Under the pieces are notes generated by a model. That model was not told the DNA's origin, searched no databases, and saw only the letters and a list, made by a program, of their open reading frames with translations. Positions 11,334-61,000 of a stretch of 64,000 bases of DNA are shown here, in pieces; the first letter of the stretch is position 1; each line of letters starts with the position of its first letter. The position numbers were made by a program, and so were the translations under genes. This stretch comes from an uncultured Clostridia bacterium (GTDB lineage: Bacteria > Bacillota > Clostridia > Christensenellales > UBA1242). Location: the NCBI GenBank assembly GCA_944381205.1, contig CALWKG010000003.1, positions 27,573-91,572 on the forward strand, read 5' to 3'.

Positions 11334-14300
11334 AAAATTTTGAGTTAAGAATACAGGATTTTAATCAAAATAAAAACTTAGCGATAAGCGGGCTTAATGT
11401 TGGTGAAAAGACTTTTTTGCCGTATTTTTTGTCGCTAAAAAAATGTGTGATTGTTTGTCTAAATAAAAAAGATTTGGACTTGTATAGTGAAACTCTTAAA
11501 TCCTTAAACAAAAGGGTTATTTACTTAGAAGATAAGTTGCCACTCTTGGTTACAATAAGTGAAAGGAATGCAAAAGAATTTAGCCAATATTACAAATTTG
11601 TAAGTAGGCTTGCGCAAGGAGATTACGATGTTGCCATTATTACTCCGCAGGTGTTGTTTCAAAAATTACCCAACAAAGACTATATTTTAAGTCACACTTT
11701 AACTATAAAAAAAGGTGAAAAATTGTCCGTTTTTGACATAAAAAAAACACTTGTAAATATGGGGTATATTAATAGTGATATTGTGACTAATCCCGGGGAA
11801 TTTAGCCTAAGGGGTGACGTGCTTGATGTATACGCAATAGATAGTTTGGATATTATAAGGGTGTCTTTTTTTGATGACGAAGTAGAGTACATTCACAGCC
11901 TAGACTCTACAACTTATAAAACAAGGCAAGAACTTGATATTGTAAGCATTTGTTGCAATACCTTTATAGATTTGACAAAAGAGCAAAAGGAAGACGTCAA
12001 GGCTTTAATAAAGCAGGATTTGATAAAACTTAACCTTAAAAAATCAGATAGTATGGTTAGAATAAGCGAGATAGTCAATACCCAAATTGATTATTTAGAT
12101 AACAATTTGATGAGTGTGTCTAGTGTGTTTTTCTTGCCGTATTTAGATTATTTTAATGCTTCCATTTTTGACTATTTAGACGCGCAGACGACTATTATTT
12201 TTGATGAGCCAAAATTAATTACCGATAAACTAGCAGAAATAGACGAAGACAATATAAATAGTTTCCTAACCTTGTCGTTAGGCGGGGAATTTTTGCCACG
12301 GAATATGGATTTTTATTTTAAACGCGATAAATTGCTTTCTAACATACAAGATTTTAAACTTGTGGCTTATTCTAGGCTCCTTAGCCAAAATAAAATTTTT
12401 AACCCCGATTTTGTTTTAAATTTTTCTTGCCCACACATAAAAAATTACTTTGATAATTATATTGATTTAGTAAACGACATAAAGCAATTTTTAGATAACG
12501 GCTATAATGTTGCTATAAGTGCTAGACAAGACGAAGTAAATAAAAAACTAACCACTTTTTTAAAGGATAAGGGAATTGATTTTAGGGAAACAGGTGATTT
12601 GGATTTTTCGCAAAATTCACTAATACTACTAAAAACGGGCTTTAATTTATCCTGTTATTTTGAACTAGAAAAAGTGGTTTTTATAGGCGATAATAATCTT
12701 AGCAAGACACAACTAAACACCGCTAAGCCAGTATCTTCAAAGCCGGCTTATTTGCCCGCGGTAAATGATTATGTTGTGCATGAAGTCCACGGTATAGGCA
12801 AGTGCGTAGGCATAAAAAATTTAAAAATCACCAATGTTTTTAGGGACTATATAATAATAGAGTACCGCGACCACGATTTACTTTATGTTCCGTGTGAAAA
12901 CGCGAATATGCTTTCAAAATACACTGCGGAAGGGGAAGTGAAGTGCAACAAAATAGGCGGGGCTGAATTTTATAAAACCAAGCAAAAAGTAAAAAAATCT
13001 ATTAAGCAAATGACCTTTGATTTGCTTAAAGTTTATGCCGAAAGATTAAATGCTCGCGGATTTAGGTATTCCAACGATGGTTATCTTCAAAGTGAATTTG
13101 AAAAGGCATTTCCATATACCTATACAGAAGACCAAATAAAAGCCATCAATGACATAAAGGCGGATATGGAAGGCCCACGCATTATGGATAGACTTTTGTG
13201 TGGAGATGTTGGCTTTGGCAAGACGGAAGTCGCTTTGGTTAGCGCCTATAAGGCTATTCAAGACGGAAAACAAGTGGCGATAATTTGCCCAACTACCATT
13301 TTAAGCGAACAGCACTACGCGACTGCACTTTCTCGTATGAAAAACTTTCTTGTAAACGTGCAGGTTATCAATAGGTTTAAAACAAAAAAAGAGCAAGACA
13401 AAATTTTAAATGATTTGAGTATAGGCAAAATAGATTTAATAGTTGGCACTCATAGACTACTTAGTAAAGACGTAAAATTTAAAGATTTGGGGCTTATTAT
13501 TATCGACGAAGAACAGCGATTTGGGGTAGAAGATAAGGACAAACTAAAAAGCATAAAAAAGAGTGTAGACGTGCTATCTCTTTCTGCCACTCCTATCCCA
13601 AGGACATTATATATGTCGCTAGTAGGCATAAGGGACGTAAGTTTTTTGTCTACTCCGCCTAAAATGAGAAAACTAATTAAAACCTCTGTGGTTGACTACT
13701 CGGATACGATTTTGGTCGAAGCCTGCAAAAGAGAACTATCTAGGGGTGGGCAGGTTTTGGTGGTTTATAATAAGGTTCAGTCTATTTTAAACTTTTACAA
13801 CCACTTAAAAAATCTTCTGCCCGGCATAAATATCGACTATGCTCACGGGCAAATGAATAGTCGCAGTTTGGAAGACGCAATATATAGACTGTACTCACAT
13901 TCAACTCAAATTTTGGTAAGTACAATTTTGATAGAAAACGGGGTAGACTTGCCCTTGGCTAACACTCTTTTTGTAATCGACGCAGATAAACTAGGGCTTA
14001 GCCAGTTGTATCAGTTAAGGGGCAGGATTGGGCGGAGTGATATTGAAGCTTATGCCTATTTTAGTTTTAGTAAAGACAAACTATTAACGGTGGATTCTTA
14101 TAAAAGGCTGGACGCAATTATGGAGTTTTCCAACCTTGGCAGTGGCTACCAAGTTGCTTTGCGTGACCTTCAAATTCGTGGTGCGGGCGATGTTTTGGGC
14201 AGGACTCAGCACGGGCATATGCAACAGGTGGGATTTGACCTTTATGTTAAACTGCTTAACGAAGCGGTAAAAGAGATAAAGGGCGAAAAAATCCAAGATT

Positions 14301-20611: not shown

Positions 20612-20872
20612 ATGGATATTGAAGAAAGAGTAATAAGGGAAGCAGTTTTTATTTTACAAAAAAACGGAACGGTAAGGAGTGTTGCGAAGGCTTTTAAAGT
20701 GTCAAAAAGTACCGTGCATTTTGATTTGAGCAAAAGATTAAAAAAGTTAGATTTGAGTTTGTTTTTTAGTGTAGAAAAATTGCTTAAACTTAATCTTAGC
20801 CAAAGACATATCCGGGGCGGAGAAGCCACAAAATTAAAATACATAAACAAAAAAACGGTAAGAAAACAATAA
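20612..20872 (+). CDS. spoIIID: sporulation transcriptional regulator SpoIIID
   Basis: 86 aa. HTH 'VRSVAKAFKVSKSTVHFDLSKRL' and C-terminal basic region 'RHIRGGEATKLKYINKK' closely follow the SpoIIID pattern. RBS 'gggggtg'. Confidence 0.85.
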   Translation: MDIEERVIREAVFILQKNGTVRSVAKAFKVSKSTVHFDLSKRLKKLDLSLFFSVEKLLKLNLSQRHIRGGEATKLKYINKKTVRKQ

Positions 20873-21540
20873 AAAAATAACAAAAAAATGATAAAAAGAT
20901 ATTAAAAAAATAGTAAAAAAGAAGTAAAATAAGCGATAAAGTAGGAATAAAAAAGTGATAAAATAAGCGATAAAAACACGATATAAAAGTGATATAAAAA
21001 ATAAAAAAAGCAGTCAAAAGAATAATAAACTAGGGGTGAAAAATACTAATTTTTTAAGCAAAAAACATACGAATTTTTAAGCAAAAATCAACATAAGATT
21101 TGTCTAGGAATTAATTAAATTTAGGTAAGAATTATATCAAATTTTACATAGAAATCGATTGAGTTTTAAGTAAAAATATACTTAATTTTAATAGGGAAAT
21201 ATTAAAGTTTTTAAGCGAGATTATAATAAATTTTAAACAAAAAAATACTAAATTTTATGTAAAAATTATATTAAAATTTATGTAAAAATTAATAAAATTT
21301 TTGGGGAAAACACTAAAAAATTGAGTAAAAAATACTGAAATATAGGTAAAAAAATTATAAAAATTAAGTGAAAAATTGCAAAAATTATTAAAAATTTTAA
21401 TAAAAATCTACAAAAATATCGATAAAAATAAATAAAAAATTAGTAAAAAATAGCAATATTTTGATAATAAATTTGTTAAAATTTTATAAAAATTTAAATA
21501 ATTTTAGATAAAAAAGCACTAATTTTTTGACAAAAAAATC
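20871..21540 (+). repeat. helically phased A-tract array (degenerate ~11-bp periodic A-rich satellite), predicted intrinsically curved DNA
   Basis: A4-7 tracts start at 20871, 882, 893, 904, 915, 926, 938, 949, 960, 972, 985 and 996. They resume at 21261, 273, 284, 294, 307, 315, 327, 338, 348, 359, 371, 380, 390, 402, 412, 424, 434 and 445, then at 21478, 488, 510 and 532. Spacings are 8-13 bp or multiples of ~11, with a mean of about 10.8-11.4. Confidence 0.75.
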
Positions 21541-21607
21541 AATGGATTATTAATAAAATAATTACTAAAAATTGAAAAAAATGGGTAAGACAATTAAAGT
21601 AAAAAAT

Positions 21608-21772
21608 GGCAAATATAATCGATTTAAAATAATAAAAAAATTTATAAAGTAGACAACTTTAAATAATCATAAGGGCTGTAAAGTAGACAAAATCAAATAA
21701 AAAAAACTATAAAGTGGACTATTTTAAATAAGCAAAATAGGCAAATATATTAGGTTTTAAATAATAAAAAAA
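21608..21772 (+). repeat. iteron-like triple direct repeat TAAAGTRGACWA flanked by a ~33-bp direct repeat
   Basis: 'taaagtagacaa' at 21645-21656 and 21679-21690, and 'taaagtggacta' at 21710-21721 (spacings 34 and 31 bp). The set is bracketed by 'ggcaaatata..ttt(t)aaa(a)taataaaaaaa' at 21608-21640 and 21740-21772. Confidence 0.55.
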
Positions 21773-21922
21773 GGCGGGAATAATTAAAACAAAAAAACGC
21801 AACAAATTTATAAAAACCAGATAAAATGTGAACGTAGAATTAAGAAAAAGGCTTTGCAAGATGGGGTTTAGAAATTTTAAATAAAAGGAGCAAAAATTTT
21901 TATAATCTAACTTAATAAAAAT

Positions 21923-21942
21923 TGTGGATAAAATGTGGATAA
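21923..21942 (-). promoter_or_regulatory. two perfect tandem DnaA boxes (TTATCCACA on the minus strand)
   Basis: 'tgtggataa' at 21923-21931 and again at 21934-21942, 11 bp start to start. This is the reverse complement of the consensus DnaA box TTATCCACA. The pair lies ~165-185 bp upstream of the -35 of the giant-gene promoter. Confidence 0.6.
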
Positions 21943-22106
21943 ATTATTCAAAACTATAAATGTATAATTTCCGCTAAAATAAAGAAGATTAGCCTTTTAT
22001 AATTTCGTTAAATTTTTTTAGAAATTAATTGCAAAACGAGAAAAAAAAATTATAAAAAGGCAAGTAAAAAAAATAAAAAAAACATCTATTTTTTATGCGT
22101 AATCGT

Positions 22107-22136
22107 TTGACAAAAAATGATAATATAAAATATAAT
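22107..22136 (+). promoter_or_regulatory. sigma-A type promoter candidate for giant gene 1
   Basis: TTGACA (22107-22112), an 18-bp spacer, then TATAAT (22131-22136). This predicts a 5' UTR of roughly 60 nt before ATG 22203. Confidence 0.5.
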
Positions 22137-22202
22137 TAACTAAACTTATTGCTTGACTTGATAAAACTAACTGAAAACTCACATAATAAAAGTAGGTGTT
22201 TT

Positions 22203-22268
22203 ATGAAAAAGGTATTTGTGTTTTTATCAATTTTCTTACTCTCATTTTCAGGGGTGTTATTTGCGTGT
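22203..22268 (+). other. lipoprotein signal peptide (SPase II type) of giant gene 1
   Basis: KK n-region, a hydrophobic core, and the lipobox L-F-A-C with Cys at residue 22. Confidence 0.75.
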
Positions 22269-25200
22269 AACGAAGACAAGTACGCCGATTTAAGAGTTGT
22301 ACTAGGTTCTGTTACAAACGCAGACTCGGGCGGGACGTTATCTCCTAACGAAGATGGGGTGTACGAAATTTACTATGGGGACACCGTTAGAATTAATGCG
22401 GAAGTGTCGTCTTCTAGCGATGTAAGTAGGGTGCTGGACTTTATAAGTCATAGTTCGGACAACTTCCCAGAAATTTCTAGTAGTAGGACGCAGACGTCTG
22501 CTGAGTTTAAAGCAGAGATGCCTTCAAAGGGTGAAATTTTTAGGGTGACTGTAAAATCGAGAGAAACAAATCGGGGTTCGCTAGATTTAAGGTTTAAAGT
22601 GCTTTTGCCAACGGACGAGATTTCATTGTCTGATAATTTGGGCTTGGTAAGCGGTATAGAGTTAGACCTAAATGACAACGTCGATTTTGTGAGCGATTTA
22701 ACAAGTGCCTACGAACCTGACGAAAAAGGTGTGAGTTTTGCAATATCTTCGTACATTGATGAAAATGGCGATGACTTTAAGGTTGAATTAAAAGAAAATG
22801 GGGTATATTACATAGAGGGAAGTAGTACTCCATCTTTTGCTTTAAATGACGGGGTTATAGAAATTGTGGACAACACTCTTGATGGACAAGTTGTGGTGGA
22901 AGCGGTTTCTGAAAAATACGACGTCAATTTAGAGTCTAATTTGGAAGATATGGATTTAACCGATGAAGAAAAACAAGCCTTAATTGCGGAAAACAACAGA
23001 CTAAAAGATTTGACAAACATAGACATTGTTCAAAAAATAACCTTAGACGACATTACTTTTAGCGGGGCGCAAATAGGGTTTATGAACTATAAATCAAGCG
23101 ACAAACAGGTAAAGTTATCTGCTGACTTGTACAACAACGTGTCTAGCAAGTACGTTTATAATGGCAGTGAATATTCCTATCAATTTGAAAGGGTAAACGT
23201 GTTAGTCGCTAGCCAAGAAGATTTTGAAATAGTTTACGAAATTGGCGATATGATTATTGGTGATGAGATTTATCAAAGTCAAAGCGGGGTAATTAATGTT
23301 TCAAACGTAAGTGGAACAGAAAACAATAAGGTCTTTGAATTTTTAAGTGGCGAAGCAGGTACTGCGTATGTTGACTTTGTTATACAATACAACTTTGACA
23401 ACGTGATAGAATTTAGTTTTTCGGATTTATACCTAGAATACCTAAATTCGCTAGAAAGCAGTGTTTATGAACAATTAAACGAATACGAAAAGTACACAAA
23501 ATTGGTCTTTAATGTGAGTAGGTTGCCAGAGTCAATTACTGTGACACAGGACGACGAAATTGTTTTAAGAGATGGCAAGTATGTAGATAAGGTTCAGACA
23601 GATGAAATTGCCATTTTTGATACATACACGGGGACTAAAAATCAAAACGGAAGCATTATAAAATTAAACCTTGGTGGAACGGGAGTTTTGGACGAAAACA
23701 AAACTGTTAGGGTTTATATCAAAGGGCAGACTGCGGAAATAGTTGTGTCCGACTACTTGACGATAGTTGATAGCAACAAAACTACAATACCACTATCTAA
23801 CATTGACGTTGACGACGTGACATATTATTATTTTGACTTAGATGTAACAAACGAAAAAACCAGTATGTTCTATATTAGGGCAAAAAATGTTAACGAAAGC
23901 AATTTGTTCTCACTAGAATTTGAAAATATCATTGGTAGCAAGGTTTATAACAGGGAAGGTGAAGAAGTAACTTCTACCCTTGCTGGCAACAAAGTTGGGA
24001 CACAGGTTGTGACGTCTAAGGGTATTCAAAGTTTAGAGGTAAAGGCTATATCTGGCACAAATGAATTTGTAAACCTAGACGTAGAACACATTGGAAATAA
24101 CGAAGATTACTTAAAGCAGATGGTTTTAAGTAAAGACAAAAAGACAGGGTCTTTGCTGGCATATTTTTATGACGAAGGTGCAGATTGCAACATAACTATA
24201 AGCGGTTATGACAAAAATATTATAGAACTTGTAAAAACTAGCGAAGACGACTCTACCCTAGAAGATTTATTTGGTAAAGCCTATGACGATAGCCTTTTAG
24301 ATATTGGCGGAGTGTTGGTTTTTAGGGGGCTTAAAGCGGGGTCTACTACTATAACCTTTACTGCGGAAAACGGCTACACTACAAGTGTTAATGTTTTGGT
24401 GGTTAACGACGTTTCTGACATTAATTTTACGATAGAAGAACTCACTGCGGATACTGTAAATGCTGACTTGTTGACTAATCCGGACAACTATGTTTCTATG
24501 AAATATGGATATAGTTTTGACATAAAGGTCAATACGATAAGTGCAACGGGGATTATTGGAACTAGTTTTACTAGCACTAACAGCGCGGTTGCAAGTATTG
24601 ACGCGAGAAATGGCAGAGTAACTGCAAATAGAGAAGGCACAACTACTATAACCGTAACGGTGTCCTATTATACTTTTGGCACTATTGTAGGTGCGGGTGA
24701 TTATATCGTTTGGGATAAGGCGGAAAAACAACTAAAATTTGAACTAGAAGTTTACATTCCGCTAGAAGATATCAGGGTTACTCAAAACGCAATTTTGGTT
24801 TATGATGTAAATTCGCTAGCCTATGACAACACAGACAAGGCAAGAATTAACATTGGGGTTGATATTGTCGCAGATGACGCAACTATAAAAAATGACCCTA
24901 ATGCCGTGAGAATTGAAGTTAGGGGAGCGGACTACTTACAAGGTGTAGAATATGACATAAATAACAACACCATTATTGGTACAAACCTTAGCGCAGTTGC
25001 TTCGCTACCAAAAACCGCCAAAAGCGCGACGGTTAAGTTTATAATTTACGTAAACGAGTTTGGAACTGAGATAACAAGGGAATGTTCTATAAACATTGTG
25101 CGTGCTACACAAGTGGATAGCATAGACGTTGCAGTTTCGCAAGAAGATGACAATGTGGTAGTAGATAGGGAGCAGGAAGAATATTCTTTTAGAATTCGCT

Positions 25201-45974: not shown

Positions 45975-46043
45975 ATGAAAAGACTATTTAGTGCACTGTT
46001 TGTGTTTTTAATAATGGGCTTTACATTTGTATTAGTTGGTTGT
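45975..46043 (+). other. lipoprotein signal peptide (SPase II type) of giant gene 2
   Basis: KR n-region, a hydrophobic core, and the lipobox L-V-G-C with Cys at residue 23. Confidence 0.75.
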
Positions 46044-49000
46044 AATGACAGATATGGGGGATTATCCATGTCCCTATCTTTTTCCTTTTCACCTAATGGC
46101 GAAAACGTAGAAGTCCTAGACGACGGCACCTACCGAGTGATAACCGGCGGGGGTGTTTTTGACGCAAAAAGGGACGGCAGTTATGTGATTTATATTGGGG
46201 AAGAAAATGCGAGAATTCCGCTAGACATTGTATATCACAACGCGCCAGACGACTTTAACTATGACGTAAATTTTTCCTATAATTCGGAGGCTTTTACGTG
46301 CGACAAATCGGACAAAAATTTTATAACAAACGGGATACAGGTGACCGTGGTTGCGTCTAGCATAGGCAAGGGCAACCTAACGGTAATAAATTCCGAAGCG
46401 AACATAAAATCCAGCATTTACATTGAAGTTGTTAAAATTGCAAACGAAATTAGTTTTAAAAATAGCAGTCTTGGAATTTCGGTTGAAGAAAGGTCAATCA
46501 TAAATTTTGCAAACGAATTAACGGGCATACCGCAGGGGCAAAATTTTGAGATAAGTTTTGGCACGGGCAGTGTGGAAAATTTTAGCCCAATGACCTATGA
46601 AGAACTTATGACAAAGGGCTTTAACTACAACATAAACACTAAGTCGCTATCGCTTGCCAGAACTACCAATATCGAATTAGACAGTTTTTTGGTTAAGGCT
46701 ACTTACACAAGTCCACTGGGGGAAGAACTTGTTGCCTACGCGACGATTGACGTTTTGCCCGCGCTAAGTGGTTTTGAAATTTATTTGGGTAGCGACATAG
46801 ACTCTGTTTTGCCAGAAAACAGGGTGGATTTAAACTCGGCATTAGAGTTTGTTTATAACAATGTAGACGGCAGGCTTAACTATAAAGACTTTATTTTTAA
46901 AATTAATTCCAATGGCGAAAAGGTTACTTTTGGGGCGATTTATGAAGAAGGGCTTTATCCTTTTAAGGTGGGCGAAAATATACTAACCCCACAGCCTTTG
47001 TTTAACAAAAGCCCGTACGTTTATGTAAACCAAAACGGGCAAGTGGTTGACGACTACTCGCAGGCGACCACCACTTATGGATTTTTTAGGCTAGAAGCGA
47101 TAAAAAGTACAGAAGACCCAAAATACACTAACAGCATTTATACCATTAACTTTACTTGTGATTATGCCGATTACGAGATAACAAATTACCCACTAGTTTT
47201 AAATGTAGATAGCACTATTTTTAGTTTGGTAGAAACTTTTGAGATAAACGGCGACAGTGTTGATAGCACCTTTTTTGAAAAGGGCGAACTGGCGGGCTCA
47301 ATAGACAGCATTATTGACAAGTTTTACCAAAACAAACTATACCTTAACACGTCAGGTGACATTAGCGGGGAGAGTTTTGAGATTTCGGTAGCAAGCCCAA
47401 GCAATATTAACGAGCAAAACTCAAAGTTTTACGTAGAATTTTACGACGACAACTACAATTTGATAGCCGACCCGAGTTATTATTTGACAATTAGTTACGA
47501 ATACGCGGGCAATAGTTACAATTACGTTAGTTCGGACAATCAACTATTTAGCAAGGACACGACCTTTTACATTAAGCCAAAGAGAGAAACCACTAGCGCA
47601 AACGACCAGTTTTTTATGATTATCCGTGCCGAAAAGCCAACAGATATGCCTGCGGTGGCGGGACTTCACTTTGTGGTGGTGGAAGGCATTAGCGAGATTG
47701 AAAGTTACGACTACACAAACTACACCTATTCGGTAAATGAAGAAACAGGCGAGTACATACTGGACGAGTTTGGCAACAAGATAATTGTAAATAGCGGTAG
47801 CGAAGGGGTTTTGTTTACCGAAAGCACGTCAAGTAGCAAGACTATGGTTGGGGTAGAAACCATAAACGTCGACCTAAACGTCAAGCAAGACATTTTTATT
47901 AGCCTTAATGCCGACTATGAAGAATATTCTAACGTAAGTATCCAGTCTTCCGACCCTAGCATTTTGATAATTAAGGAAATTAACGGCGGGGATATAACCG
48001 CTCAGGCTTTAAAAAAGGGTAGCGCCAAAATAATAGTTAGAGTGGAAAGTTTGTCTATGGTATACGAGATAGACATCAATGTTTTTAGCCCAATAACATC
48101 TTTTTACACAACCCTAAACACTTACGACAATGGAGTGGGCGAATACGAAATTGACGACGACAAAATTAGTACCAAAAGCGCAACCGTCGAAGCCAAGACC
48201 ACGTTTAGTGTTTTAATCTCGACTCGCCCTTTGGAAGAAAAAGTCTATGATTTGATAACTAGGCTTTATGTCAAGGTAGCCGAAAATGACTACCAACTAG
48301 TTGGCGAATACCTGGGGGCAGGTGACGGGGTTATACAAGACGGATATATAACCTACAATGCAATAAATCACAGTTTTACCTTTTATAGCGACGACGCGGA
48401 AGGTAGAGAATACATAGTTGTGTACGAAATTCACAACTTAGACGGGGCTATTTTAAGAAAGCAGATAACCCTTAAATGTTTTGTTCCAATTAGGGATATT
48501 ATGATAGAAACTACCACCACTCAAATTTACGAGCCGGACTCCATTTATTACGGCGACAAGGTTTTGAGTGCACAAGATTTGTCCCTTAGGCAAGACGACC
48601 CTAGCATATTCGGGCTAAGGGTTAACGTCAACCACGTAAGCGAAAGAATTCCGACCTTTACCTTTGAAGATTACGGGGTTATCGAGATTGAGTTTAACGG
48701 AAATATTTACAATAGGTATAGTGTAAAAAATGGGGTTTTGGTGGAAGAATACATTAGCACTTTAAGCCCAATTTCTGCACTATCTAATATAATGACTAAC
48801 GGCTATTACTGGTTTAGGCTAAACGAAGACAGAAAACTATCAAATGACAGTCTTTTAATAAATGCCTATGTTAGAGAGTTTAGTAAAAACAACTTTGAAG
48901 ACAACAAAAAGATTGAAATCATACCCGTAAGCGCGGTAAAGTCCATCGTGTCAAATGACGGCACGGACATTAATTTTAGGCAGGGTATTGACAACTCGTT

Positions 49001-52000
49001 TAGCGCAAATTTGCAGGTCTTTGACGGCGACATTTACAATAGCGAGTTGCTGTACATACCAGTAGTGGTGCTAGAAGATAAATTTGCAGTCGTTCAAAAT
49101 GGCGGTCTTTTTACAATAAGCATTAACAAAACCTACGAAAATATGTTCAGGCTAGACTTTGGATTAAATCACAAGTTTGGCGGTTACGGGGCGGTGGTTA
49201 TTATTCCGCAAGACAAGATAAACACTTTAAGCGATTATACCACTTGGAACAGTTACACCTACACACAAGTGACCGTTAACGAAGATAGTTTTGTTCAAGG
49301 GCTATATTACATTATGCAGGGGGAAGAATATTTCCTTGCTAGCGAATATTTCGAAACCCAAACCTACTACATAAAGGGCATTGATTTATCCCAAGTGCTG
49401 TCTATTTGGCAGGGGGCTTTGGTGCTAAACATAAGTGTTTCCGACGGGGAAGGGATACCTTACCACATCTCTACCTATGAAGAACTAGTCGAGATAGGTA
49501 GCAGTGCGGAGTCGGCTTCCAAAAACTACGTCCTAACGCGTGATATAGAAATTCCAAGCAGTTACAGGTGGCAAGCCATACAAAATTACTACGTGGCAAA
49601 TGTTACTAGTCAGGAAGAATTTTTGCTAGACACATATTACATTAAAGACGGCGAAGACTACGTTATTAGTGAAGAGTACGACGAAGATGCCACTTACTAC
49701 GGGCTGGGCTTTAACGGTAATTTGACCGGCAAGTACGAGATTGTCGATTACAGGACAGGGCAAACCATAACCGAATACTACTCCATTACAAACGTAAGGT
49801 ACGAAGGCGGGTATAATTCTTCCCTAATGGGAATATTCACAAAACTTGGTGTAGACGGGGTCATAAGCGATTTAAAGGTTGAATATAGTTATTTCCAACC
49901 TAGCACTACCACTGCTGGTTACTACGGCGGTATCGTTGGAGAAAACAGGGGAAATATCCAAAACGCAAGTGTTAGGTTTAGCGATTACAGGCTAACCATA
50001 ACCAAGCCAAACGACAACGAATTTAAGGTCGTTGTGGGCGGAATTGCAGGGGTAAACTACGGAACCATTGAAAACAGCAGGCTACTAGACGAGTCTTCCT
50101 TGCAGGGTAACCTAAGTGTTGTACTACTTAGCGAAGATATCGACGCGCTTGTTGGTGGCTTTGCGGGCGAAAACTACGGGGTAATTAGCGGTTCGTATGA
50201 TACAGACAAGCAAATTGAGTATACTTTTAACGACATTGGCTTTGACTCTGTTTTGGGGATTAGAGTGGACGGAAAGTCGGTTAATTCTCGAATAGGCGGG
50301 GTGGCGGGTCTAAACAGTGGCAAGATAAAAAACATTGCCTTGCAGGGCAAAATCGTGGCAAGCGGGCTTAACTACGTCGGCGGGATAGTTGGTTACAATG
50401 ATGTTTCGTCTAACAGAGAATATTCTATCGAGAGAAGTTACTTTGCGGGTACGGTTTCTGGCAATGACTTTGTTGGCGGGGTGGTTGGAAATTCTAGCAA
50501 TGGCAGTTACTACAACATTAGCGCCGAAAACTATGCCACAAGCACAAACAGTTCGCGAACCTTTGTCACGGGCAACAGGAACGTCGGCGGATTGATAGGT
50601 TATGCCAGCAACGTGCAGGTGCAGTTTAGTTTTGTAGTGAGTTACTTTGGTTGCGACAGCATAGAAAGTAAGTTTGTCGAGTCTTCAAGCAGTTACGACG
50701 TTATCGGGCAAGAAAACGTCGGCGGGCTTGCTGGGGTGTTTGTAAATTCGCAGGTTAGCGCAAGCGCCACCTATGTAAACGTGCGGGGAAATGACGCGGT
50801 TTCTAATTTTAGTGCGGTGACTAACTCGTCTAGTATTGAAGACGCGTTTGCCATAGGCTGTATATACGCGGTCAATGGGGTAAGCCACAACCCGCTTAGC
50901 ATTGCGCAAAATTCCTATTCCATCATAACGGACGTAAGGCAGGGGGTTACCTACACCAACGGCTACGAAGACGGGGTTATAAATATAACAATAGAAGACC
51001 CGTGGAAAGCAAGCGAAGTCGCGGACAACCCGCCATACCTTGTGTTTGAAGGCGAAGCGCTACTATCCACTAGCCAAATTGTAATCACGGCAAGTGTAAA
51101 GGATAACGACGCGCCTTACACTAACTACATTAAAGCCACAGACACGGCACTATTGCTGTTTTATGGCTATGACGAGTTTAATAGATATTCTAGTTCGCTA
51201 ATGAACCAAGTAAACACCATAGGCTTAAAGGACCTGATTGACCTTAAAGTAGAACTAGAAACTCACAAAACCACTAGATTTGACGTCAGGTCTAGCAATT
51301 TATCCGTGCTTACCATAAGCCAAAACGGAGATATTAGGGTAGTGGGTACGGGCAAAGCGATAATTACAATTTCTTCCAAATTAAATTCCAGTGTGTTTAA
51401 GCAAATAGAAGTAGTTGTAATAAACGGCATTACGGGTATGGAAGTGTACTCCAACCCGTCAATGACGCAAAACGCGGACGATTTAGATTTAACCCTTGTA
51501 AAATCTCAAAGTTTGGGGCTGTATTCGGAGATAGAATACACAAGGCAAATTGACAACCAAGAGTTGCAACTTTTAAGTAGCGAGCAGGTTGGGGTTAGGT
51601 TTAAGGTGTACGACGACGAGAGTTTGCAGGAACTTTTGCAGTCGCTGGTGGACGACGAAGAAGGTGTGTACTACGAGTTAAACGACATTTTGCGCATAGC
51701 GGGTAACACGTGGGCGCAAGACCCTAACGGCTTTTATTACGTGGACGTTGACTATAACTCTCAAATTTCAATAGTTCCGCAAATAGCCTTTGATTTACCT
51801 ATAACAATTTCCTACACTCCGTACATAAAGACGGTGTTTAATTCGGGCGAGATAGTGACCTTGCTAGATATGATAGGCGAGAGATTTTTTAGGGTCACCG
51901 CTCAAAACGGGGCTACCGATATCGTCTTAGAAAATAACATTTTATCCACAGTGGATATCAATCAGTTGGAGTACTTTACCTTTACCGTTACCGTGTATAC

Positions 52001-55000
52001 TGATTATGAAGAAGAAGACATCGACAGCAACATAAACACTATTACTGACCAAAACTTTGGCTTTAACCCGGGCAACAAGGTCATAAACAAGGACTCAAAC
52101 GGCAAAGTTGTCAGTGTGTCTAGAAGTTACACCGTTTGGTACAAAGACAAGGTAAACACAATAGATGAAGAAAAGGTATACAACCTTAACTTTTGGGCTG
52201 TAACTAACGCGAGCGAAAATTCGCTTAGTTTGACGATAGTCGTTCACGGGCAGGACGGGGTTAGCGATATAAGCGCTAGGATTTTCTCCGACGTGAAGGA
52301 AGACTTTCCGCAAAAGCCTAGCGACAGCAACACCATCTACAACGCAAGGACGGGGCTACTGGCATTTGAAGTGTACCCGTATTTTGCAAACTACTCTAAA
52401 CTAAGGGTAAGTTACAGTGGCAACATAAACTATGCCATAACCTTAACCCAACTGTACTACAACGCGGATAACACGGGGGATAAGTTCTCAATCTACACAA
52501 ACTCCGGTACGACTTTTGACGAAAACGGCAACCTTATTGTCTTAAAAACTAGCGGGCAGGACAGCGCGTCTATTAGCACTAACGGGATTTATTCGTATAG
52601 CAGAATGTATTTCTTTGGCATACTGGTGCCTAGCGGTGTGCCTGATAGGACTAGTTATGTGATAACTATTGACGTTTTGGATAGCAAAAACAACGTGATT
52701 TACTCCGAGCAAGTTCCGTTTAGCACTCTTGCTAGGTCTGACCTTAATTTGAGTTTTGACGCAAAGTTCTTGGGCGAAGACGGCTTGTACTACTTGCCGG
52801 CAAATACAAGGCAGGAATTGGTCGTAAATGCCAATACCGAATACGAGGCAATTTCCTTTGAAATTTCTTCACCAGACTACCAGTTAAGCGAGATAGAAAA
52901 GGAAATCTTTGAGCCTACTTTAAGCGATGGCGGGTATTATGTTTGGGTAATGGACTATAAAAACAACCTGTTTAGTACCGACCTTATCGGTAAAACTATC
53001 GAGATTGAAGCGGTGCTTGATGACGGCGAAACCGCAGACCCGGCAAGCATTAGTTTTGTAATAAGTTTATTCACAGTAACGGGGGTAAATGTCAATAACT
53101 TAAATCAGGGATATATGACACTAGAAAATTCGGTCACAACCCCATTAACTGTAAATGTAGAGGCAGTGTATGACGAGAGTTTGGTAAATAGTAGCCAAAA
53201 CTGGTACACCACTTGGTACAATAACTTTGGCGAAGACCAGACAAATTCGCTTTATCTAAACATTTTAAACGCGGGGTACAGCATAGAAGCCAACTTTGTA
53301 GACTACCTATCTCAACTGCAAGATAGCATTGCAAAGGCAAACTACAATAGTTCTAGCACTTCCACCACAAAGACGTCAGGGGTGTGGCTGTATGTGGATA
53401 GCCAAGGCACTTTGTCCGCACTAAGAAGCGGAAATATGTACAACAACAATGCCTTTGGGGTAGAAAATTACAGGGATTACATAGCGGTGTATGGGTACGA
53501 AACGGATAGAAATTCCAACCTAATACTAAATGTAAGGCTAACCTACTCGCACTACGATATGTCGACGTCCACAAGGGTAAAAGACAGTAGCGGTGTGCCT
53601 AGTGTAAGGGACTATAACTACGAGTTTGCACTGTATCAAAGCAACTTTACCTTTGAGCAGGAGTTTACGTTGACTTTTGTAGATAGGATAGGGCTTAATA
53701 ACCCAACACCTATATCTAGTGCTAGCGAGTTTTTGGACCTAGCGGAAGAAACCGAAGGCGATTTTAGATTAGTCAACGACATAGAACTGACAAATTACAC
53801 CCCAATTAATCTAAACGTGGATAGTTTTGACGGCAACAATTACACCATTTACATTACTAGTTTTAGCAATTCCGCCACCAACTTTGCGCTATTTGACACC
53901 ATTGATAGCGAAAGTATGGCATACAACGCAACGGTATACTACACCAGCAGGGTGGATTATTCTACCGAACTTGAAACCATTATCCCGCGTGCCTATCCTA
54001 TTGAAATTGAACTAAATCAAACCGGGTCGTACAACTTTGGTGGGCTAGCGATAACAAATAAAGGAATTATAACCAACTGCACGGTGACGGGCGGGGTGAC
54101 ATTTGATACCAATTTAAGTTTAAGTGTCACAAACGGCGGTCTTGTTACCCAAAACAGCACAAGCGGGTTTATTACAAACTCTAAGGTAACCCACTTTATT
54201 TTGACTTGCTATGGCACAACGGGCGGTTTTGTCGCACAAAATATGGGTAAAGTGGTCGCGTCGTACTTTGACAATAGTTCTATCACCAACCTATCCACCG
54301 CAAACACGGGCGGATTTGTGTACCAAAACAGCGGTGAAATCTACGAGTGCTACGCACAGGGGGCAAGAAGCACCACCGATAACGACATTCGCAACACCGG
54401 CGCGGGAATTTCTTCCGACGGGGGTAACGTGGGTGGCTTTGCGTACCAAAACACCAGCCTAATTAGTGACTGCTACTCCAACATACTAATTTCTACGTCA
54501 AATATGATGGCGGGCTTTGTGTACGTGGATAGCGAGTCCAGTGTGATTAGTAAGTGTTACTCTATAAGTTGTAAACGTTCGGGCGATAACGAAACAACCG
54601 CCTTCCCGTTTGTGGGACCTAGCGCGGAACACATCATTCCGCTAAGGGTAATAGTAAACGGTACCCTAAATAACTGCTACTATTTGACCACCGGTGGCTC
54701 GTGGGAAGAGTCTAATTTCTACTTGCCAGACAGCACTAACCCAAGGCTCACCCCTGCCAATAAAAAGGCAGAAGCCCTAGAAACCGACGATTTTGCCACT
54801 CACGACAGTTTTATCAATTACGACTTGTCGCTTGTGTACAACACCGATTACTATGAAGATAGGACACAATTTAACTACATAGACGGCTACACGTGGGTTA
54901 TTGTGGAAGGCAAACCACTACTTGTGTCTACCTTAACTAATACCATCAGCCAGCAGGACTATCAGGGCAAACAGAAAAATTATGACAGCGAAGAACTCGT

Positions 55001-58000
55001 CTGCTTTGACAAATCCAGCATTGGCGAACTGCACGCGGTGGAGCAGACAGAAGGGGTTATGGGCTCCAATCTCATTCGCACCAACTACTATGCTTTAAAG
55101 CAAAGCGGTGACTACCTTGATAGCGACATAATTTATTCTTCACTAAGGGATAACAACGCAAATCAAATCACCTACACCTTTAACCCTAAGGGCGAGTTTT
55201 TGGGGCTTAGCATTATTTGCAGTATTGTGGTAGACGAAAACGGCAAGGAAACTTACGTTTACGAAAGCGCCGAATACGGTGACGGAAAAATCTTGGATAT
55301 TAGGACTAACAGCGGTGACGTCTACTTTGACTCTGACGAAAATTTCAGGGCAAACGACACCATTGTGATTGAAAGGAACGAGCAAAACAACGAGATTTTG
55401 CGTATCACGTACAGGACTTTGCAGAGCGCGTCGTACTACTATTCTAGCAGTGTTTCGGGCATAAGCGACGTCTTAGGCACAAGGACTAACCCAAAGATTA
55501 TCTATAACGCAGAGTCGTTTAGATATTGGCTAACCGAAACCACCCTTAACAAAACCACCAACACCTTTTATAGGATTGTTAGCGATATTAATTTAGATAG
55601 CGAATATATCACGACGTCCAATTCCACTTTTAGCGGGGTTTTGCAGGGTAACTATATGTCAATAGAAAACTTGTCCTTGTCTTACTTTAATAATAGCGTC
55701 GAAGCCGGGCAAAACAGCACGTCCTTTGGGCTGTTCTCGTCCATTGCGACTAAAAAGGAGTCCACAAACGACACGGTCATTTCCAACCTTACCATTAACG
55801 TCGACCAAGTTTTGTCTAACGCGCATATGTTTGTCGGGGCTTTGGCGGGAATGATTAACGCGGACAGCACGTTGAGTTCTAAAAAGGTATTTTTAACAAA
55901 TATTTCCATTTTAACCCCAGAAGGAAGCAAATCTTTGGTAATGGGCAAAAACGCGGTAGGCGGGCTAGCGGGGTACGCGACGGGCAACGTGATTATTAAG
56001 GACATAACCGCCAGTGTTAGTGTCAATGCGTCATACGAAGCGCCTGATTCGGTCATTAACAGCACTCTTTACGCGGGGGCAAACACTAGCAACGTAAGTA
56101 GAATTTCCTACGCGGGCGGGGTAGTTGGGATATTTGACGTCAAAAAGGTCATTGACACCGCAACTCTTAGGAACTACAACGCAAGCAACATAATAGTAAA
56201 TGGCGAAAACACGTACGTTGGCAACATAGTAGGTAGCGCGTTTGGACTAGTTGGCGAAAACTGCATAATAAACTACGTCAACGCGAGTTTAACGCACTCC
56301 GAGATTTCGTTTATCAAAGCCACCAGTTACGCGGGCGGTTTGGTGGGCGAAAACCGCGGGACGATAATAAGTTCTTCGGCAAGCCAGTACGACGAGCAGG
56401 CAAACGAGCAGAACCACGGCATTGGCGACTCGCCTTATGACCAGTACGACCTGTTTTTCAGCGGGCTTGGGGGAGAAGTGCTTGCCATCGGCGGTTTGGT
56501 TGGGCTAAACAACGGCGGACTTGTGACAAATAGCATTTCAAAGGTAAATGTTACCAACAAAAAGGCGACCATCGCGGGCGGTGCCGTGGGTAGAATGTTA
56601 GAAGGCGCGCTAGAAAACGTAATTGCCAGCGGTGCGGTTTTAGGAAACAGGATTATGGGCGGTCTTGTCGGTAGCCTAAACGATATCGACTTAATGGCGA
56701 TAGAAGGCGAATACAACGCAGACGGTTTAATACCTTTTGATAGGCAAAAGTACATCGACTTTTACGGTAGTTTTGTCGCGGGCGAAGACACAAAGGTGAT
56801 AATCTCTAACTGCGTGGCGGGCAACAACTGGCTAGTTAAAGACTACTCCTATTACTTGTCTAGGATTAACAACGGTAACGCGCTCTTGGCTGGGTTTATC
56901 GGGGTAATATCCTACTACAATACGGTAAGTGCCATAAACGATTTGATTTTTGAAACAATCAGTTTTACAAAACCTAGTTTTTATGCCAATACCTTGTTTA
57001 CCACAGTCAATAGTCAAAACCCGGCTAGGATTTTGCAAAGCACCTATCTTTCCTACGAGTTGGACTCTGTGGAAGTAAACACCAACAGTCCAAATGTCCT
57101 AGTGGACGGTAACGGCGAGCAGGTGGTTTACCCGTATTCAACTAACGAATTCTACTACGAGTCGGCACAAAGCAAGGTAAACTACACGGTAATTAGCATT
57201 AACAACGAGTTATCCGGGGCAGGTTCGCCAAATGACGTCTATGCCAAAGAGTTTTACCAAATACGTCAGACCACCCCGTCAGAACTCATTAACTCGGAGT
57301 TTTTCTACACCCTAATTGACTATGACGAAGACGGTAATTGGGGTACTCCGTATAACCAACGCAGTTTCGACTGGTACCAAGATAGATTTGGCTACATTTA
57401 TTACCTAAACGAAAACAATTCCTACACCTTGGTAAATAGCGAGCAGGAGTTTATTGCTCTCGAAAAACTAAGCGACGGCAGTTTTAGGGAGTTTTACTAC
57501 ATACAAAGCCCGATTTTGACCGAGTTTAGTTATACGGAAGAATACCTAAGCACCGACGATAGCATATTTGTCTACGGCAACAACTTGTCTAGCAGTTCTA
57601 GGGTAAACGCGTATACGTTTGAGTCCATAGACGACTTAAAGGAGCAAACATACATCTCAATCAACGGCATACAAATACCTATTAATCTTCTCGATAGCGA
57701 AAACACCATAAGCGAAGAAATTTTCCTAGACGAACAGCACGAGCAGTTTAGCGAAGGCACCTACGAGTACAAAAACTTTAACCTTCCGCTAATAAACGGT
57801 GGGGAAATCACGTCGGTTAAAATTTACGTCAAATCCTACGTTCAGGCGGATAACATCAGGGCTTATGTCGAAAGGGTTCAGGTGGTTTACGAGTACAAAA
57901 ACGTCGGGTATAACACCCTTGATAACGAAAACGTCTTTGTGTCGCTACAATCCACTATTAACAATGCCCAAACTTTCTACGACCTAAAAATCAGTTCCAA

Positions 58001-61000
58001 AAAGGTGATATTTAGTTCGTTTAAAAACGGTTATTGGCAAATGGACGACAATTTCTTGTCCTACTCCCTAGACGACGTCAGCAGGTATCCGGTTAATTTG
58101 GAGTTTGCCGAAAAGTACGTGTGGAGCGATTTTAGGTCAACCAACGTTTCTACCACCATCTATACGGCAGAAGATTTAGCCGGCTTTGCCTATATGGTAA
58201 ACAGCGGGTATGATAGTTACGAAGGCAAGACCGTAACCCTTTCTAGCGACATTGATTTAAGCGGAAAGTATTGGCTTCCAATAGGTAGCGAAAAGTATCC
58301 ATTTAAAGGCACTTTTGACGGGCAGGGGTACAGCATTAAGTACGTGTCGGTAAACGAAAATTCGCTTAAAGATAGCAACAATTTGCCAAAGTACGCGGGG
58401 CTGTTTGGCTACACGGACGGGGCGACAATTTTCGACATAAATATCCTAGGCGGTGAAGTTTGTGGCGAGTACGCAGGCGGGCTGGTTGCCAAGGCAAACA
58501 ACACCACTATCTATAACGTTCAGTCTAGAAACAATGCCGTGGGGCAAGTTTCCGCGGGCGGAATAGTGGGCGAAATGCTTGGCGGTAGCATATACAACAC
58601 CCAAAATTATGCCAGGGTGGAAAGTAATTCCAACTCGACAAATTTAGTCTACGTGGGCGGAATAGTCGGCAATGCCACAGACACCGCTATGGGTGGAACA
58701 AGCGGGGATAGGGTCTTAACCAACACCAACTACGGTGAGATTTATGCTACAAATAACTCCACTAACTACATTTCAAACACTTTAATAGAACTATTCGTAG
58801 GCGGGATAGCAGGGCAGGTTAATAACGTGACCTTAATTGATAATTCCACCAACGAAGGCTCAATCACCGTCACCACTAATTCGGATAAAACTCACATAGG
58901 CGGGGTGGTCGGAAGTGTGGTTATCAACGATAAAACCCTAGTATTATCCAAAATTCAAAACAATGCAGATATTTTGGTAAATTATGTAAATAACTTTTCC
59001 GATGCCGACATTGGCGAAAGTGCAAACTACGACGATTACGCAGTAATGGACGTGGGCGGAGTGCTTGGGGTTAGCAACATAAACGGGACTTTTGTCAATA
59101 ACGAAGGCAACTTGACGGTCAACACCACCAGTTCTAACGACGCAAAAATTTCCGTCGGTGGCATAGTGGGTAGGATAGACGTGGACGGTGCTGGCGGGGT
59201 AGACCTACGCAATTCGTACAACATTGGGGATATAGAGTCGTTTTCTACCAACTCGTCTGTGTTTGGCATAGGCGGACTGGTGGGGACAAGCGATTTGAGT
59301 TACTACGAAAACAACAATTCGGACGAAGCAAACGAAAAGACCAAAGACAAGATAAGCATTTACGACAGTTACAACGCGGGCGACGTCTTGTCTAGCAACA
59401 ACTGTGCCACCTTTATTGGCGGAATACTCGGGTATGCCTACGGTAGCAACGTGGTGTCAAACAGGGTGTTAATTCAAAGGACATTAAACGTGGGCGGGGT
59501 TAGCATTTACAACATTATGCGTACCCAAAACGCACTCGGCGCTATCGTGGGGATAGACGAACACATTTATACCACTAACCCTATGGCAAACACCACCGTT
59601 CAGGATATAGAAGATTACATTCCGCAGGGACTATATAATTTCTACCTAAGGGGAAGTGCGTACGCGTCGGGCGAAATGTACACCGCATTTAGCCAGTACG
59701 AGCCGTCTACGTCCTATTACACCGCGGTAGACGATATTCCAACCTTTGCGGTTGCCAAAATTTCGGATAGTTTAAAAGACGAAACTAACTATCAAATAGA
59801 AGTTGTAATTTCCGACATTACCTACACCTACGATACTTGGGACTTTGATAATACTTGGGAGCAGGAGTACGACACTTGGTACCCAACCCTAAAAAACAAC
59901 CTTGTTACTGCTTTTTGGGTAGAAAAACAGCAGGAAGTTCAAAGCACAGGGGTGAGTTATTCGGTAAATTCGGCAGAAGAACTAGCCTATGTCGGCAACT
60001 TGATTAATACCGGAAAGATTGAAAGCGAAGGTATCGTCATTAACCTAAACAGTTTTATTGACCTGTCTAACAGATTTTGGACCCCTATCGGCAACGACGA
60101 CTTTCCGTTTAAAGGTACCTTTAACGGCAATAGTTACGAGATTAAAAATTTGACGGTAGAAGGCTCTGTTTTAAGCGACAACACCTACGGCGGTCTGTTC
60201 GGGGTGGTAGAAGGCGCTACAATCACCAACCTTGGCTTTAATGCCCCTGTGGTTCAAAATGTCACAAATGCGGGCAGTGTCAGTGCTTTGGCAAAAAATT
60301 CCAATATCTCGTATATCTACGTCGAAAACGGCGACAGCGAGTCCAGTGTGATAGAAGGCATATCCCTTGCAGGCGGGATTGTGGGCGAGTTGGTCGACAG
60401 CAACGACAAATCATCTAGTGACAGGCGCGGGCTGTACTTTGCCTACAACAACACCCGAGTAAGCGCCGACACAGAAATCACCGGGCTATCGTCAGTGGGT
60501 GGCTTGGTGGGCAGTTTAAGCAGTTCCATTATCGGCAACGCGTACAATGGCGAAAGCGGTATCGTGGTCGTCAGGGACGCGAGTGTCAGCACGGGTAGTA
60601 TCGTGGTGGGCGAAGCGGATATTTCTAGCCAACTCATTAACGTGTTTAACTTGTCACCGCTTATGCAAACCATAGACCTAAGCGACATCGAGATTACCGA
60701 AAAGCAACTATACACCATAACCCTTAGCGAAGACAACCGCGTACTTGTAGTTAATACAGGTTACGAGCCAACCTTTGATAACCTTGTTAGCGACGACGAC
60801 TTGGGGCAAACGGTGGACGTTTTTACCAAGGAATACAGCCTAAATAGTGTAGAACTAATTGACTACCCAACCATAAGGGGTCTTGGCAGAGAGTGGAAGA
60901 ATACCGAAAGTGACAATTTGGTTTCCTACACCATATCTAGCGACTTTGGCGAAAAGGGTAGTATAGTAGATTACATTCAGTCAATCACGGTGGATAGTTC

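Follow-up and report, generated by a model that had tools for sequence, protein, structure and literature searches.

The 1,330-bp spacer (20873–22202) that runs from the end of a spoIIID homologue to the ATG start codon of a giant lipoprotein gene, in an uncultured gut Clostridia bacterium of a Christensenella-like clade, carries a ∼700-bp array of helically phased A-tracts. Comparison with related species indicates that phased A/T tracts locked to the giant-gene promoter are a conserved trait, which this 0.7-kb array exaggerates and extends distally. The spacer lies in a 64,000-nt stretch of one genome, which we scanned in full and refer to as the window. Our favored reading, which we place at about even chances, is that the array is an intrinsically curved, expanded module of the supercoiling-sensitive σA promoter of the giant operon and would act through DNA shape or topology.

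The spacer is 82% A+T (A 706, T 386, G 152 and C 87 over 20873–22203), with a bias toward A on the + strand, and A+T content in the array region is 82 to 88%. The open reading frames (ORFs) listed for the spacer encode only 20 to 73 aa, none of them credible as a gene, and a hidden ORF was accordingly rejected. Base counts and ORF listing thus agree with a preliminary description of this DNA, which had noted an A+T-rich spacer with more A than T and no credible ORF. The array has three parts:

20863 to 21019: block 1, with 14 A4–A7 tracts, all on the + strand; period 11.2 bp, with 11-bp and 34-bp tandem units
21039 to 21260: middle, with ∼9 degenerate 22/23-bp units (AATTTTWAAGYAAAAA) in which T- and A-tracts alternate in phase; repeat families D1 and D5
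21261 to 21545: block 2, with 21 A4–A7 tracts; period 10.8 bp, with the top predicted curvature and lowest duplex stability of the window

Within 20863–21558 we counted 41 A4–A7 tracts (10 A4, 15 A5, 9 A6 and 7 A7), with T4–T6 tracts in the middle. A-tracts start at 20871/882/893/904/915/926/949/960/972/985/996 in the first block and at 21261/273/284/294/307/315/327/348/359/371/380/390/402/412/424/434/445 in the second, followed by 21478/488/510/532. This listing reproduces the A4–A7 coordinates given earlier, including those last four tracts and the mean interval of 10.8 bp over 21261–21445, except that 20938 and 21338 are A3 only. The gap formerly placed between the two blocks is not a gap, as it is filled by the ∼9 degenerate 22-bp units, whose T- and A-tracts stand in helical register. 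Runs of four to seven A or T, free of TpA interruptions, recur about one helical turn apart more regularly than chance predicts, as in phased A-tract DNA, and the units share only T-A(4–7)-T, joined by variable linkers of 3 to 5 nt.

Fourier analysis of AA/TT dinucleotides, scored against 300 dinucleotide-preserving shuffles, gave a peak at 11.0 bp for the whole spacer (z 8.7), at 11.2 bp for block 1 (20871–21010; z ∼11) and at 10.8 bp for block 2 (21255–21545; z ∼20). In the middle (21030–21260), AA+TT peaked at 11.2 bp (z 9.8) and TT, reporting the T-tracts, at 22.4 bp. The seven other intergenic regions of the window showed no phasing (z −0.5 to 1.7). A sliding scan for 9.5- to 12-bp periodicity, run over all 64 kb in 300-bp frames with a power threshold of 15, returned one sustained run above the threshold, in frames starting at 20701–21501 (maximum 39; median 4.3, 99th percentile 20.8); the three other frames above 15 are isolated and all lie in coding sequence. 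The phasing spans ∼700 bp of DNA, or ∼1.1 kb when measured as consecutive high-power frames.

Three dinucleotide wedge tables (Bolshoy–Trifonov, De Santis and a pure AA wedge) all predict static curvature, which the preliminary description had linked to phased A-tracts. With each of them, 21242–21574 is the only stretch of more than 300 bp in the window's top 1% of curvature. Block 2 has a predicted mean of 17.5 to 22.2° per helical turn, compared to a window median of 7 to 8°, and reaches 75 to 80% of the value for an ideal synthetic (A6N5)n repeat in the same models. Modeled writhe is +0.6 to +1.06 over 675 bp (0.00 ± 0.09 in shuffles; sign convention checked) and +0.34 to +0.58 for block 2. 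Because the sequence period exceeds the helical repeat, the array is predicted to follow about one turn of a right-handed superhelix and not a planar arc. At the 300- to 600-bp scale it is also the least stable duplex of the window. With a spectral peak far above the shuffles, confined to this spacer among the intergenic regions of the window, and with curvature predicted, the original observation of phased tracts stands.

The promoter of the giant operon and its surroundings comprise the following:

22107 to 22136, + strand: σA-type promoter of the giant operon, TTGACA, 18-nt spacer, TATAAT
22041 to 22094, + strand: proximal phased tracts A9, A5, A8 and A8, then T6 at about −50
21895 to 22202, + strand: segment of the spacer next to the promoter; the entire spacer of L011, the closest species available, is colinear with it
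22180 to 22198, + strand: leader box and ribosome-binding site (CACATAATAAAAGTAGGTG), conserved (alignment A1)

TTGACA-18-TATAAT is the sole 12/12 σ70-type match in the region and lies 66 bp before the ATG. In an alignment of nine species its TTGAC and TATAAT do not vary, and among strains the promoter and leader (22107–22202) show 0 substitutions in 96 positions. The leader box, GACATAATAA(G)GAGTAGGTG, stands right before the start codon; it is kept in nine species and is longer than a ribosome-binding site needs. Given the position of the promoter, the main array lies 570 to 1,240 bp upstream of it, which means that the array is indeed upstream of a promoter, as first proposed, but does not adjoin it. 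The proximal tracts at 22041–22094 fall within the ∼150 bp of the −35 element where UP-like sequences are located, whereas the array ends 570 bp upstream.

The comparison drew on a SpoIIID scan of a genome collection, which gave 23 loci in metagenome-assembled genomes of uncultured Clostridia, "Christensenella sp." among them. An orthologue of the giant lipoprotein gene follows spoIIID in most of the closer loci, and this synteny is kept in at least 13 species (the window and L011–L017, L019, L021, L022, L024 and L025). All 13 have the promoter, 11 of them with an 18-nt spacer, the usual optimum being 17. In the relatives, the spacers upstream of the giant-gene promoter measure 120 to 500 bp and some lack periodicity; 7 of the 12 are periodic, with AA/TT z of 4.8 to 9.7 and a period of 11.0 to 11.7 bp. 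The 13 giant-gene spacers have a median z of 5.1; for 49 intergenic regions elsewhere in these loci and in the window, the median is 0.7 and no value exceeds 4.4 (Mann–Whitney P = 1.6e-5). Spacers downstream of spoIIID in two loci that have no giant gene there (L026 and L029) are not periodic.

When the 13 species were aligned on the −35 element, the averaged AA/TT profile visibly oscillated over −130 to −1, and the phase relative to −35 was clustered (R = 0.78 at 11 to 11.75 bp and 0.10 at 10.5 bp; permutation P = 0.003; P = 0.006 for 10 lineages). The tracts therefore keep a fixed helical phase to the promoter over −130 to −1, an interval that does not include the distal array. In several relatives, such as L025 and L014, the tracts are not tandem copies of one another. 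From the periodic orthologous spacers, the phase clustering and these nontandem tracts, we conclude that phased A/T tracts locked to the giant-gene promoter are a conserved trait. The tracts at 22041–22094 form the conserved core of the curved module. The link between array and giant gene made in the preliminary description thereby gains comparative support through the orthologous spacers and their −35 phase; its other part, control of the gene by the array, we only infer.

Strong AA/TT periodicity of ∼11.5 bp was also seen inside coding sequence, at 331–1041 of L016, 3710–4417 of L017 and 1180–1689 of L019, where it sits in the N-terminal, Lys-rich region of a small membrane protein, and at 11601–11950 of the window, in part of mfd. 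Its probable source is the periodicity of codons and amphipathic helices, not curved regulatory DNA, and the stretches of the three relatives, being Lys-rich coding sequence, were rejected as equivalents of the array.

The array was built by duplication of units whose lengths are multiples of ∼11 bp. Tandem Repeats Finder (TRF) tiles 20846–21514 with degenerate arrays of period 11, 22, 23 and 34 (63 to 81% matches), with 11.7 copies of period 11 and 2.4 of period 34 in block 1 and 8.7 of period 22 in the middle, and the scarce G/C positions recur too, at lags of 11, 22, 34 and 45. The local duplications at multiples of ∼11 bp reported at the outset were recovered by both TRF and the repeat finder. 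Six metagenome assemblies of this species, independent of one another and encoding an identical SpoIIID protein, carry the same array, which is therefore no assembly artifact. One haplotype (L005) is identical to the window and the other assemblies are 96 to 99.7% identical within the array, where the only multibase strain difference is one extra 11-bp unit after 20888; the spectral peak is kept in every haplotype. In the nearest available species, L011 (SpoIIID 76% identical), the spacer is 336 bp and is colinear only with window positions 21895–22300 (blastn, 69% identity over 426 bp). On that basis we take ∼1 kb (20873–21894), the whole array included, to be a lineage-specific expansion. 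A search for mobile elements at the spacer found no convincing terminal repeats, only low-complexity inverted matches, and insertion of such an element was therefore rejected as the origin of the array. Several metagenome contigs break within or just past the array (L007, L008, L009 and L010 are concerned), two of them (L007 and L008) stopping ∼160 bp past spoIIID, and assemblies appear to break readily at the array.

The array is a member of a class already described, intergenic DNA that is intrinsically curved and periodic at ∼11 bp. Bacterial intergenic segments with ∼11-bp AA/TT periodicity have been reported at lengths of 100 to 150 bases (Hosid, Trifonov & Bolshoy 2004, PMC516772), and A-tract clusters in bacterial intergenic regions have been described (Tolstorukov et al. 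2005, as cited in PMC3940949; PerScan, PMC3372288). Like those segments, the array has a period of ∼11 and not 10.5 bp (11.0 bp here), is noncoding, lies by a promoter and is of a kind read as curvature or writhe associated with negative supercoiling. It departs from the described bacterial examples by its length (∼700 bp, continuous), its distal position, its strong strand bias and its minisatellite ancestry, visible as a history of tandem duplication.

Curved or UP-like A-tracts upstream of promoters are known from low-GC Gram-positive systems, including Clostridium perfringens plc and phage SP82 Alu156 (see also McAllister & Achberger 1989, as cited in PMC6301789). Such classical elements have three to six tracts within ∼100 bp of the −35 element. 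The present locus resembles them in having phased tracts before a strong σA promoter, a conserved −35 phase and proximal tracts at −40 to −70, but its bulk (∼40 A-tracts plus T-tracts) lies 570 to 1,240 bp upstream, beyond direct polymerase contact. In the bent DNA of kinetoplast minicircles, A4–6 tracts phased near 10.5 bp form planar bends over ∼200 bp. The array shares phased A-tract curvature with this DNA, its predicted curvature per turn being of the same order as that of an ideal repeat, whereas its period of 10.8 to 11.2 bp would give a superhelical path. Sites that pin plectonemes are short and lie ∼100 nt upstream of transcription starts (Kim et al. 2018, PMC6301789); the array is likewise predicted to hold sustained curvature over at least 70 bp upstream of a promoter but is longer and farther away, and pinning by the array is our favored model by analogy. 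In Caenorhabditis elegans, the An/Tn clusters called PATCs derive from Helitron minisatellites and have been proposed to be mechanical or topological insulators and not motifs for protein binding (bioRxiv 10.64898/2026.08.08.743475). They too are helically phased A/T tracts over hundreds of base pairs with a minisatellite origin; unlike the array, they are eukaryotic, with a 10-bp period, nucleosomal chromatin and a transposon origin, and the resemblance would be functional only, without homology.

The lack of a motif shared by the units, of enrichment for the SpoIIID consensus, and of an RNA family or stable fold suggests that the array is a DNA-shape element. The conserved proximal module (−130 to −40) may aid promoter function through DNA shape, and the distal 0.7-kb expansion would act through topology and not through sequence-specific sites. 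Under the twin-domain model, transcription of 40 kb of genes for membrane-targeted proteins would leave a large wake of negative supercoils behind the RNA polymerases, upstream of the operon, the second giant gene being part of that length if cotranscribed with the first. The array would then be a preferred place for these supercoils to collect, as writhe, plectoneme tips or melting, and the collected supercoiling could keep the 18-nt-spacer promoter in a favorable state, with the array also, or instead, shielding spoIIID just upstream. This expected wake is one reason why we favor a topological role. The others are that intrinsic curvature pins plectonemes upstream of bacterial promoters (PMC6301789), that a period of ∼11 bp is commonly read as a fit to negatively supercoiled DNA (PMC516772; PMC4132750) and that spacers of 18 to 19 nt between −35 and −10 are favored at high negative supercoiling in E. 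coli (PMC9303308). A stronger version makes the array a DNA-encoded topological device, superhelically curved and easily melted, that serves the giant operon as a protein-independent supercoil trap or insulator and would be a bacterial counterpart of the PATCs. It would trap or buffer the very large wake of a 40-kb membrane-tethered unit, feed the 18-nt-spacer promoter and insulate spoIIID, its length being tuned by duplication of the 11-bp unit. We regard this version as doubtful.

Several points weigh against a shape- or topology-based role. That role is reached by inference, and the curvature is a prediction throughout, computed from wedge parameters. The array is too distant for a classical UP-element or RNA polymerase wrapping effect, and the ∼560 bp between it and the promoter are phased only weakly (z ∼3.5). 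Specificity within the genome was judged from 64 kb. The comparative P values are optimistic because the compared species are related; phase-locking computed from −130 to −46 only has P = 0.008 for 13 species and 0.08 for 10 lineages, and confining it to the nonalignable distal part and independent lineages gives P = 0.08 to 0.13. Divergence of the array among divergent strains is 1.9 to 4.0%, close to the rate at four-fold sites (2 to 4.6%). Only 5 of 35 strain polymorphisms fall in tracts, though tracts make up 40% of the bases (P = 0.0015), and at A/T sites alone 5 of 271 positions are polymorphic in tracts compared to 16 of 296 outside (P = 0.027). This sparing of the tracts speaks for such a role, but the sites were assigned from a single haplotype, and mutation bias may account for part of the result. 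Finally, the array and ∼350 bp beyond it are absent from L011, which keeps the promoter and the giant gene, and the expansion is therefore dispensable for basic function.

The spacer has three further features:

21520 to 21537, + strand: copy of the −35 region (TAATTTTTTGACAAAAAA, 18 nt) at the proximal end of the array; repeat family D4
21602 to 21772, + strand: nested ∼34- and ∼65-bp repeats, with AAAGTAGACAA twice and AAAGTGGACTA once; families D2 and D3
21923 to 21942, − strand: two perfect tandem DnaA boxes (TTATCCACA) at an 11-bp offset

The −35 copy sits 580 bp upstream of the real −35 region; reading the sequence downstream of it revealed no good −10 hexamer, and the copy may be left over from a duplicated promoter region. 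In the nested repeats (TRF period 34, 3.3 copies) the motif occurs three times against 0.26 expected. AGACAA, which resembles the core of the Bacillus subtilis SpoIIID site, occurs four times in the spacer against 0.7 expected, and the repeats that bear it may be candidate sites for the adjacent regulator. The DnaA-box pair arose by an 11-bp tandem duplication (TRF period 11, 21919–21943); the window has four such boxes against 0.52 expected, and this pair is kept among strains and absent from L011.

The main rival of a topological role is near-neutral slippage, in which the array is a runaway minisatellite grown from a short functional module of phased A-tracts by replication slippage or by unequal exchange among adjacent tracts, the distal array being functionless and its phasing a by-product. 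The degenerate 11-, 22-, 23- and 34-bp arrays across 20846–21514, the recurrence of G/C positions at lags of 11, 22, 34 and 45, the 11-bp unit indel between strains and the like duplication of the DnaA-box pair are all what this process would leave, as are the absence of the expansion from the nearest species and drift at about the four-fold-site rate. However, the units are old, matching at 63 to 80%, and copy number is near-invariant among haplotypes 2 to 4% apart, unlike under active slippage. Moreover, polymorphisms spare the tracts, other A+T-rich intergenic regions show no expansion, and the same promoter has periodic spacers in species whose tracts are not tandem copies (L025 and L014). 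We consider this explanation possible, if on the unlikely side.

A nucleoid or architectural protein (HU-like, a silencer or the SpoIIID homologue itself) might instead coat or wrap the DNA and repress or activate the giant operon. Extreme A+T content combined with curvature is the classical preference of several nucleoid proteins, the gene for a DNA-binding protein, spoIIID, always adjoins the spacer, and AGACAA cores are in excess (4 against 0.7). Yet the units have no motif in common beyond T-A(4–7)-T, the AGACAA cores lie mostly outside the array, and the B. subtilis SpoIIID consensus, WWRRACARNY, has a single match where 1.8 are expected. This consensus is a fair proxy because the recognition helix and DNA-binding segments of the homologue are conserved, and an array of SpoIIID sites was rejected since the consensus is not enriched in the spacer. 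Rok, the one characterized xenogeneic silencer of Firmicutes, and MvaT disfavor rigid A-tracts, and H-NS prefers TpA steps (PMC6212790). The array, at 82 to 88% A+T, is dominated by such rigid A-tracts, although silencers of the host may differ from Rok and MvaT, and no candidate silencer gene was identified among the genes of the window. On balance a protein platform seems rather improbable to us.

That the A-rich strand acts as RNA, as a long unstructured 3′ untranslated region or a read-through leader, is very unlikely. No intrinsic terminator was found after spoIIID in the spacer of the window, and a canonical one is present in only 2 of the 13 species (L014 and L019); its absence from the other 11 makes read-through into the giant gene possible, and the excess of A over T is on the coding strand. 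Helical-repeat phasing, however, is meaningful for duplex DNA and not for RNA, and a perfect, conserved promoter with a short leader lies downstream. There was no Rfam match at the gathering score or at E ≤ 1, the minimum free energy of folding has a z of −0.92 relative to shuffles, and a tRNA search of the region found none; a known or structured RNA was rejected on these grounds.

Weakest of all, and in our estimate extremely improbable, is a replication or partition element (an origin-like unwinding region, a DnaA-box cluster or an iteron or centromere array), for which the two perfect DnaA boxes, the lowest duplex stability of the window and a resemblance of the 11-bp units to some plasmid centromeres, such as R1 parC with its 11-bp repeat units, can be adduced, but cumulative GC skew rises without the reversal expected at oriC, all flanking genes, on either side, share one orientation, neither dnaA/dnaN nor a rep or par gene lies nearby, and the boxes are absent from the nearest species. 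An origin was thus rejected on GC skew and gene context despite the boxes, and an iteron or centromere array because the repeat units lack a conserved core, with only T-A(n)-T in common and variable linkers, and have spoIIID and a giant gene as neighbors.

The genes around the array are as follows:

20612 to 20872, + strand: spoIIID homologue, 86 aa (Pfam PF12116, E 7.5e-27; PDB 2L0K SpoIIID, E 7e-17)
22203 to 45620, + strand: giant gene 1, ∼7,800 aa, with a lipoprotein signal, starting MKKVFVFLSIFLLSFSGVLFAC
45975 to 62726, + strand: giant gene 2, 5,583 aa

The Lys-rich 3′ end of spoIIID runs into the periodic array. The N-terminus of giant gene 1 is conserved in relatives, and the protein has many GG[IV]xG-type repeats; the two giant genes, a 40-kb pair for surface proteins, have almost no Pfam matches apart from one Big_2 domain, in giant gene 1. 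Periodicity is absent from the 354-bp spacer that separates them (z 0.7). A protein search for further relatives of the giant genes gave two fragments only, and a scan of JGI metagenomes with the N-terminus of the giant protein gave no match. In two more distant relatives an opposite-strand gene of ∼250 aa separates spoIIID from a large gene whose N-terminus differs (6244–7651 of L027 and 6240–7218 of L028), and the spacers upstream of these large genes are not clearly periodic. Two metagenome contigs carry other genes upstream of the M23-peptidase/acpP/spoIIID block, showing that upstream synteny differs between strains. In a search for same-genome sequence past the window, the end proteins gave no exact record, and GltX contigs add <4 kb.

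Curvature from phased A-tracts near bacterial promoters was recognized decades ago, and its purpose is debated among polymerase contact, nucleoid packing and the positioning of supercoils. This locus is an unusually clean test case, as it combines a long phased array, natural spacer variants, the same consensus promoter and extreme expected supercoiling. Should the length of the array prove important, DNA mechanics written into the sequence would count as an evolvable control on the expression of giant genes; should it prove irrelevant, the locus would illustrate how a functional curved module can expand neutrally by slippage in steps the size of the helical repeat.

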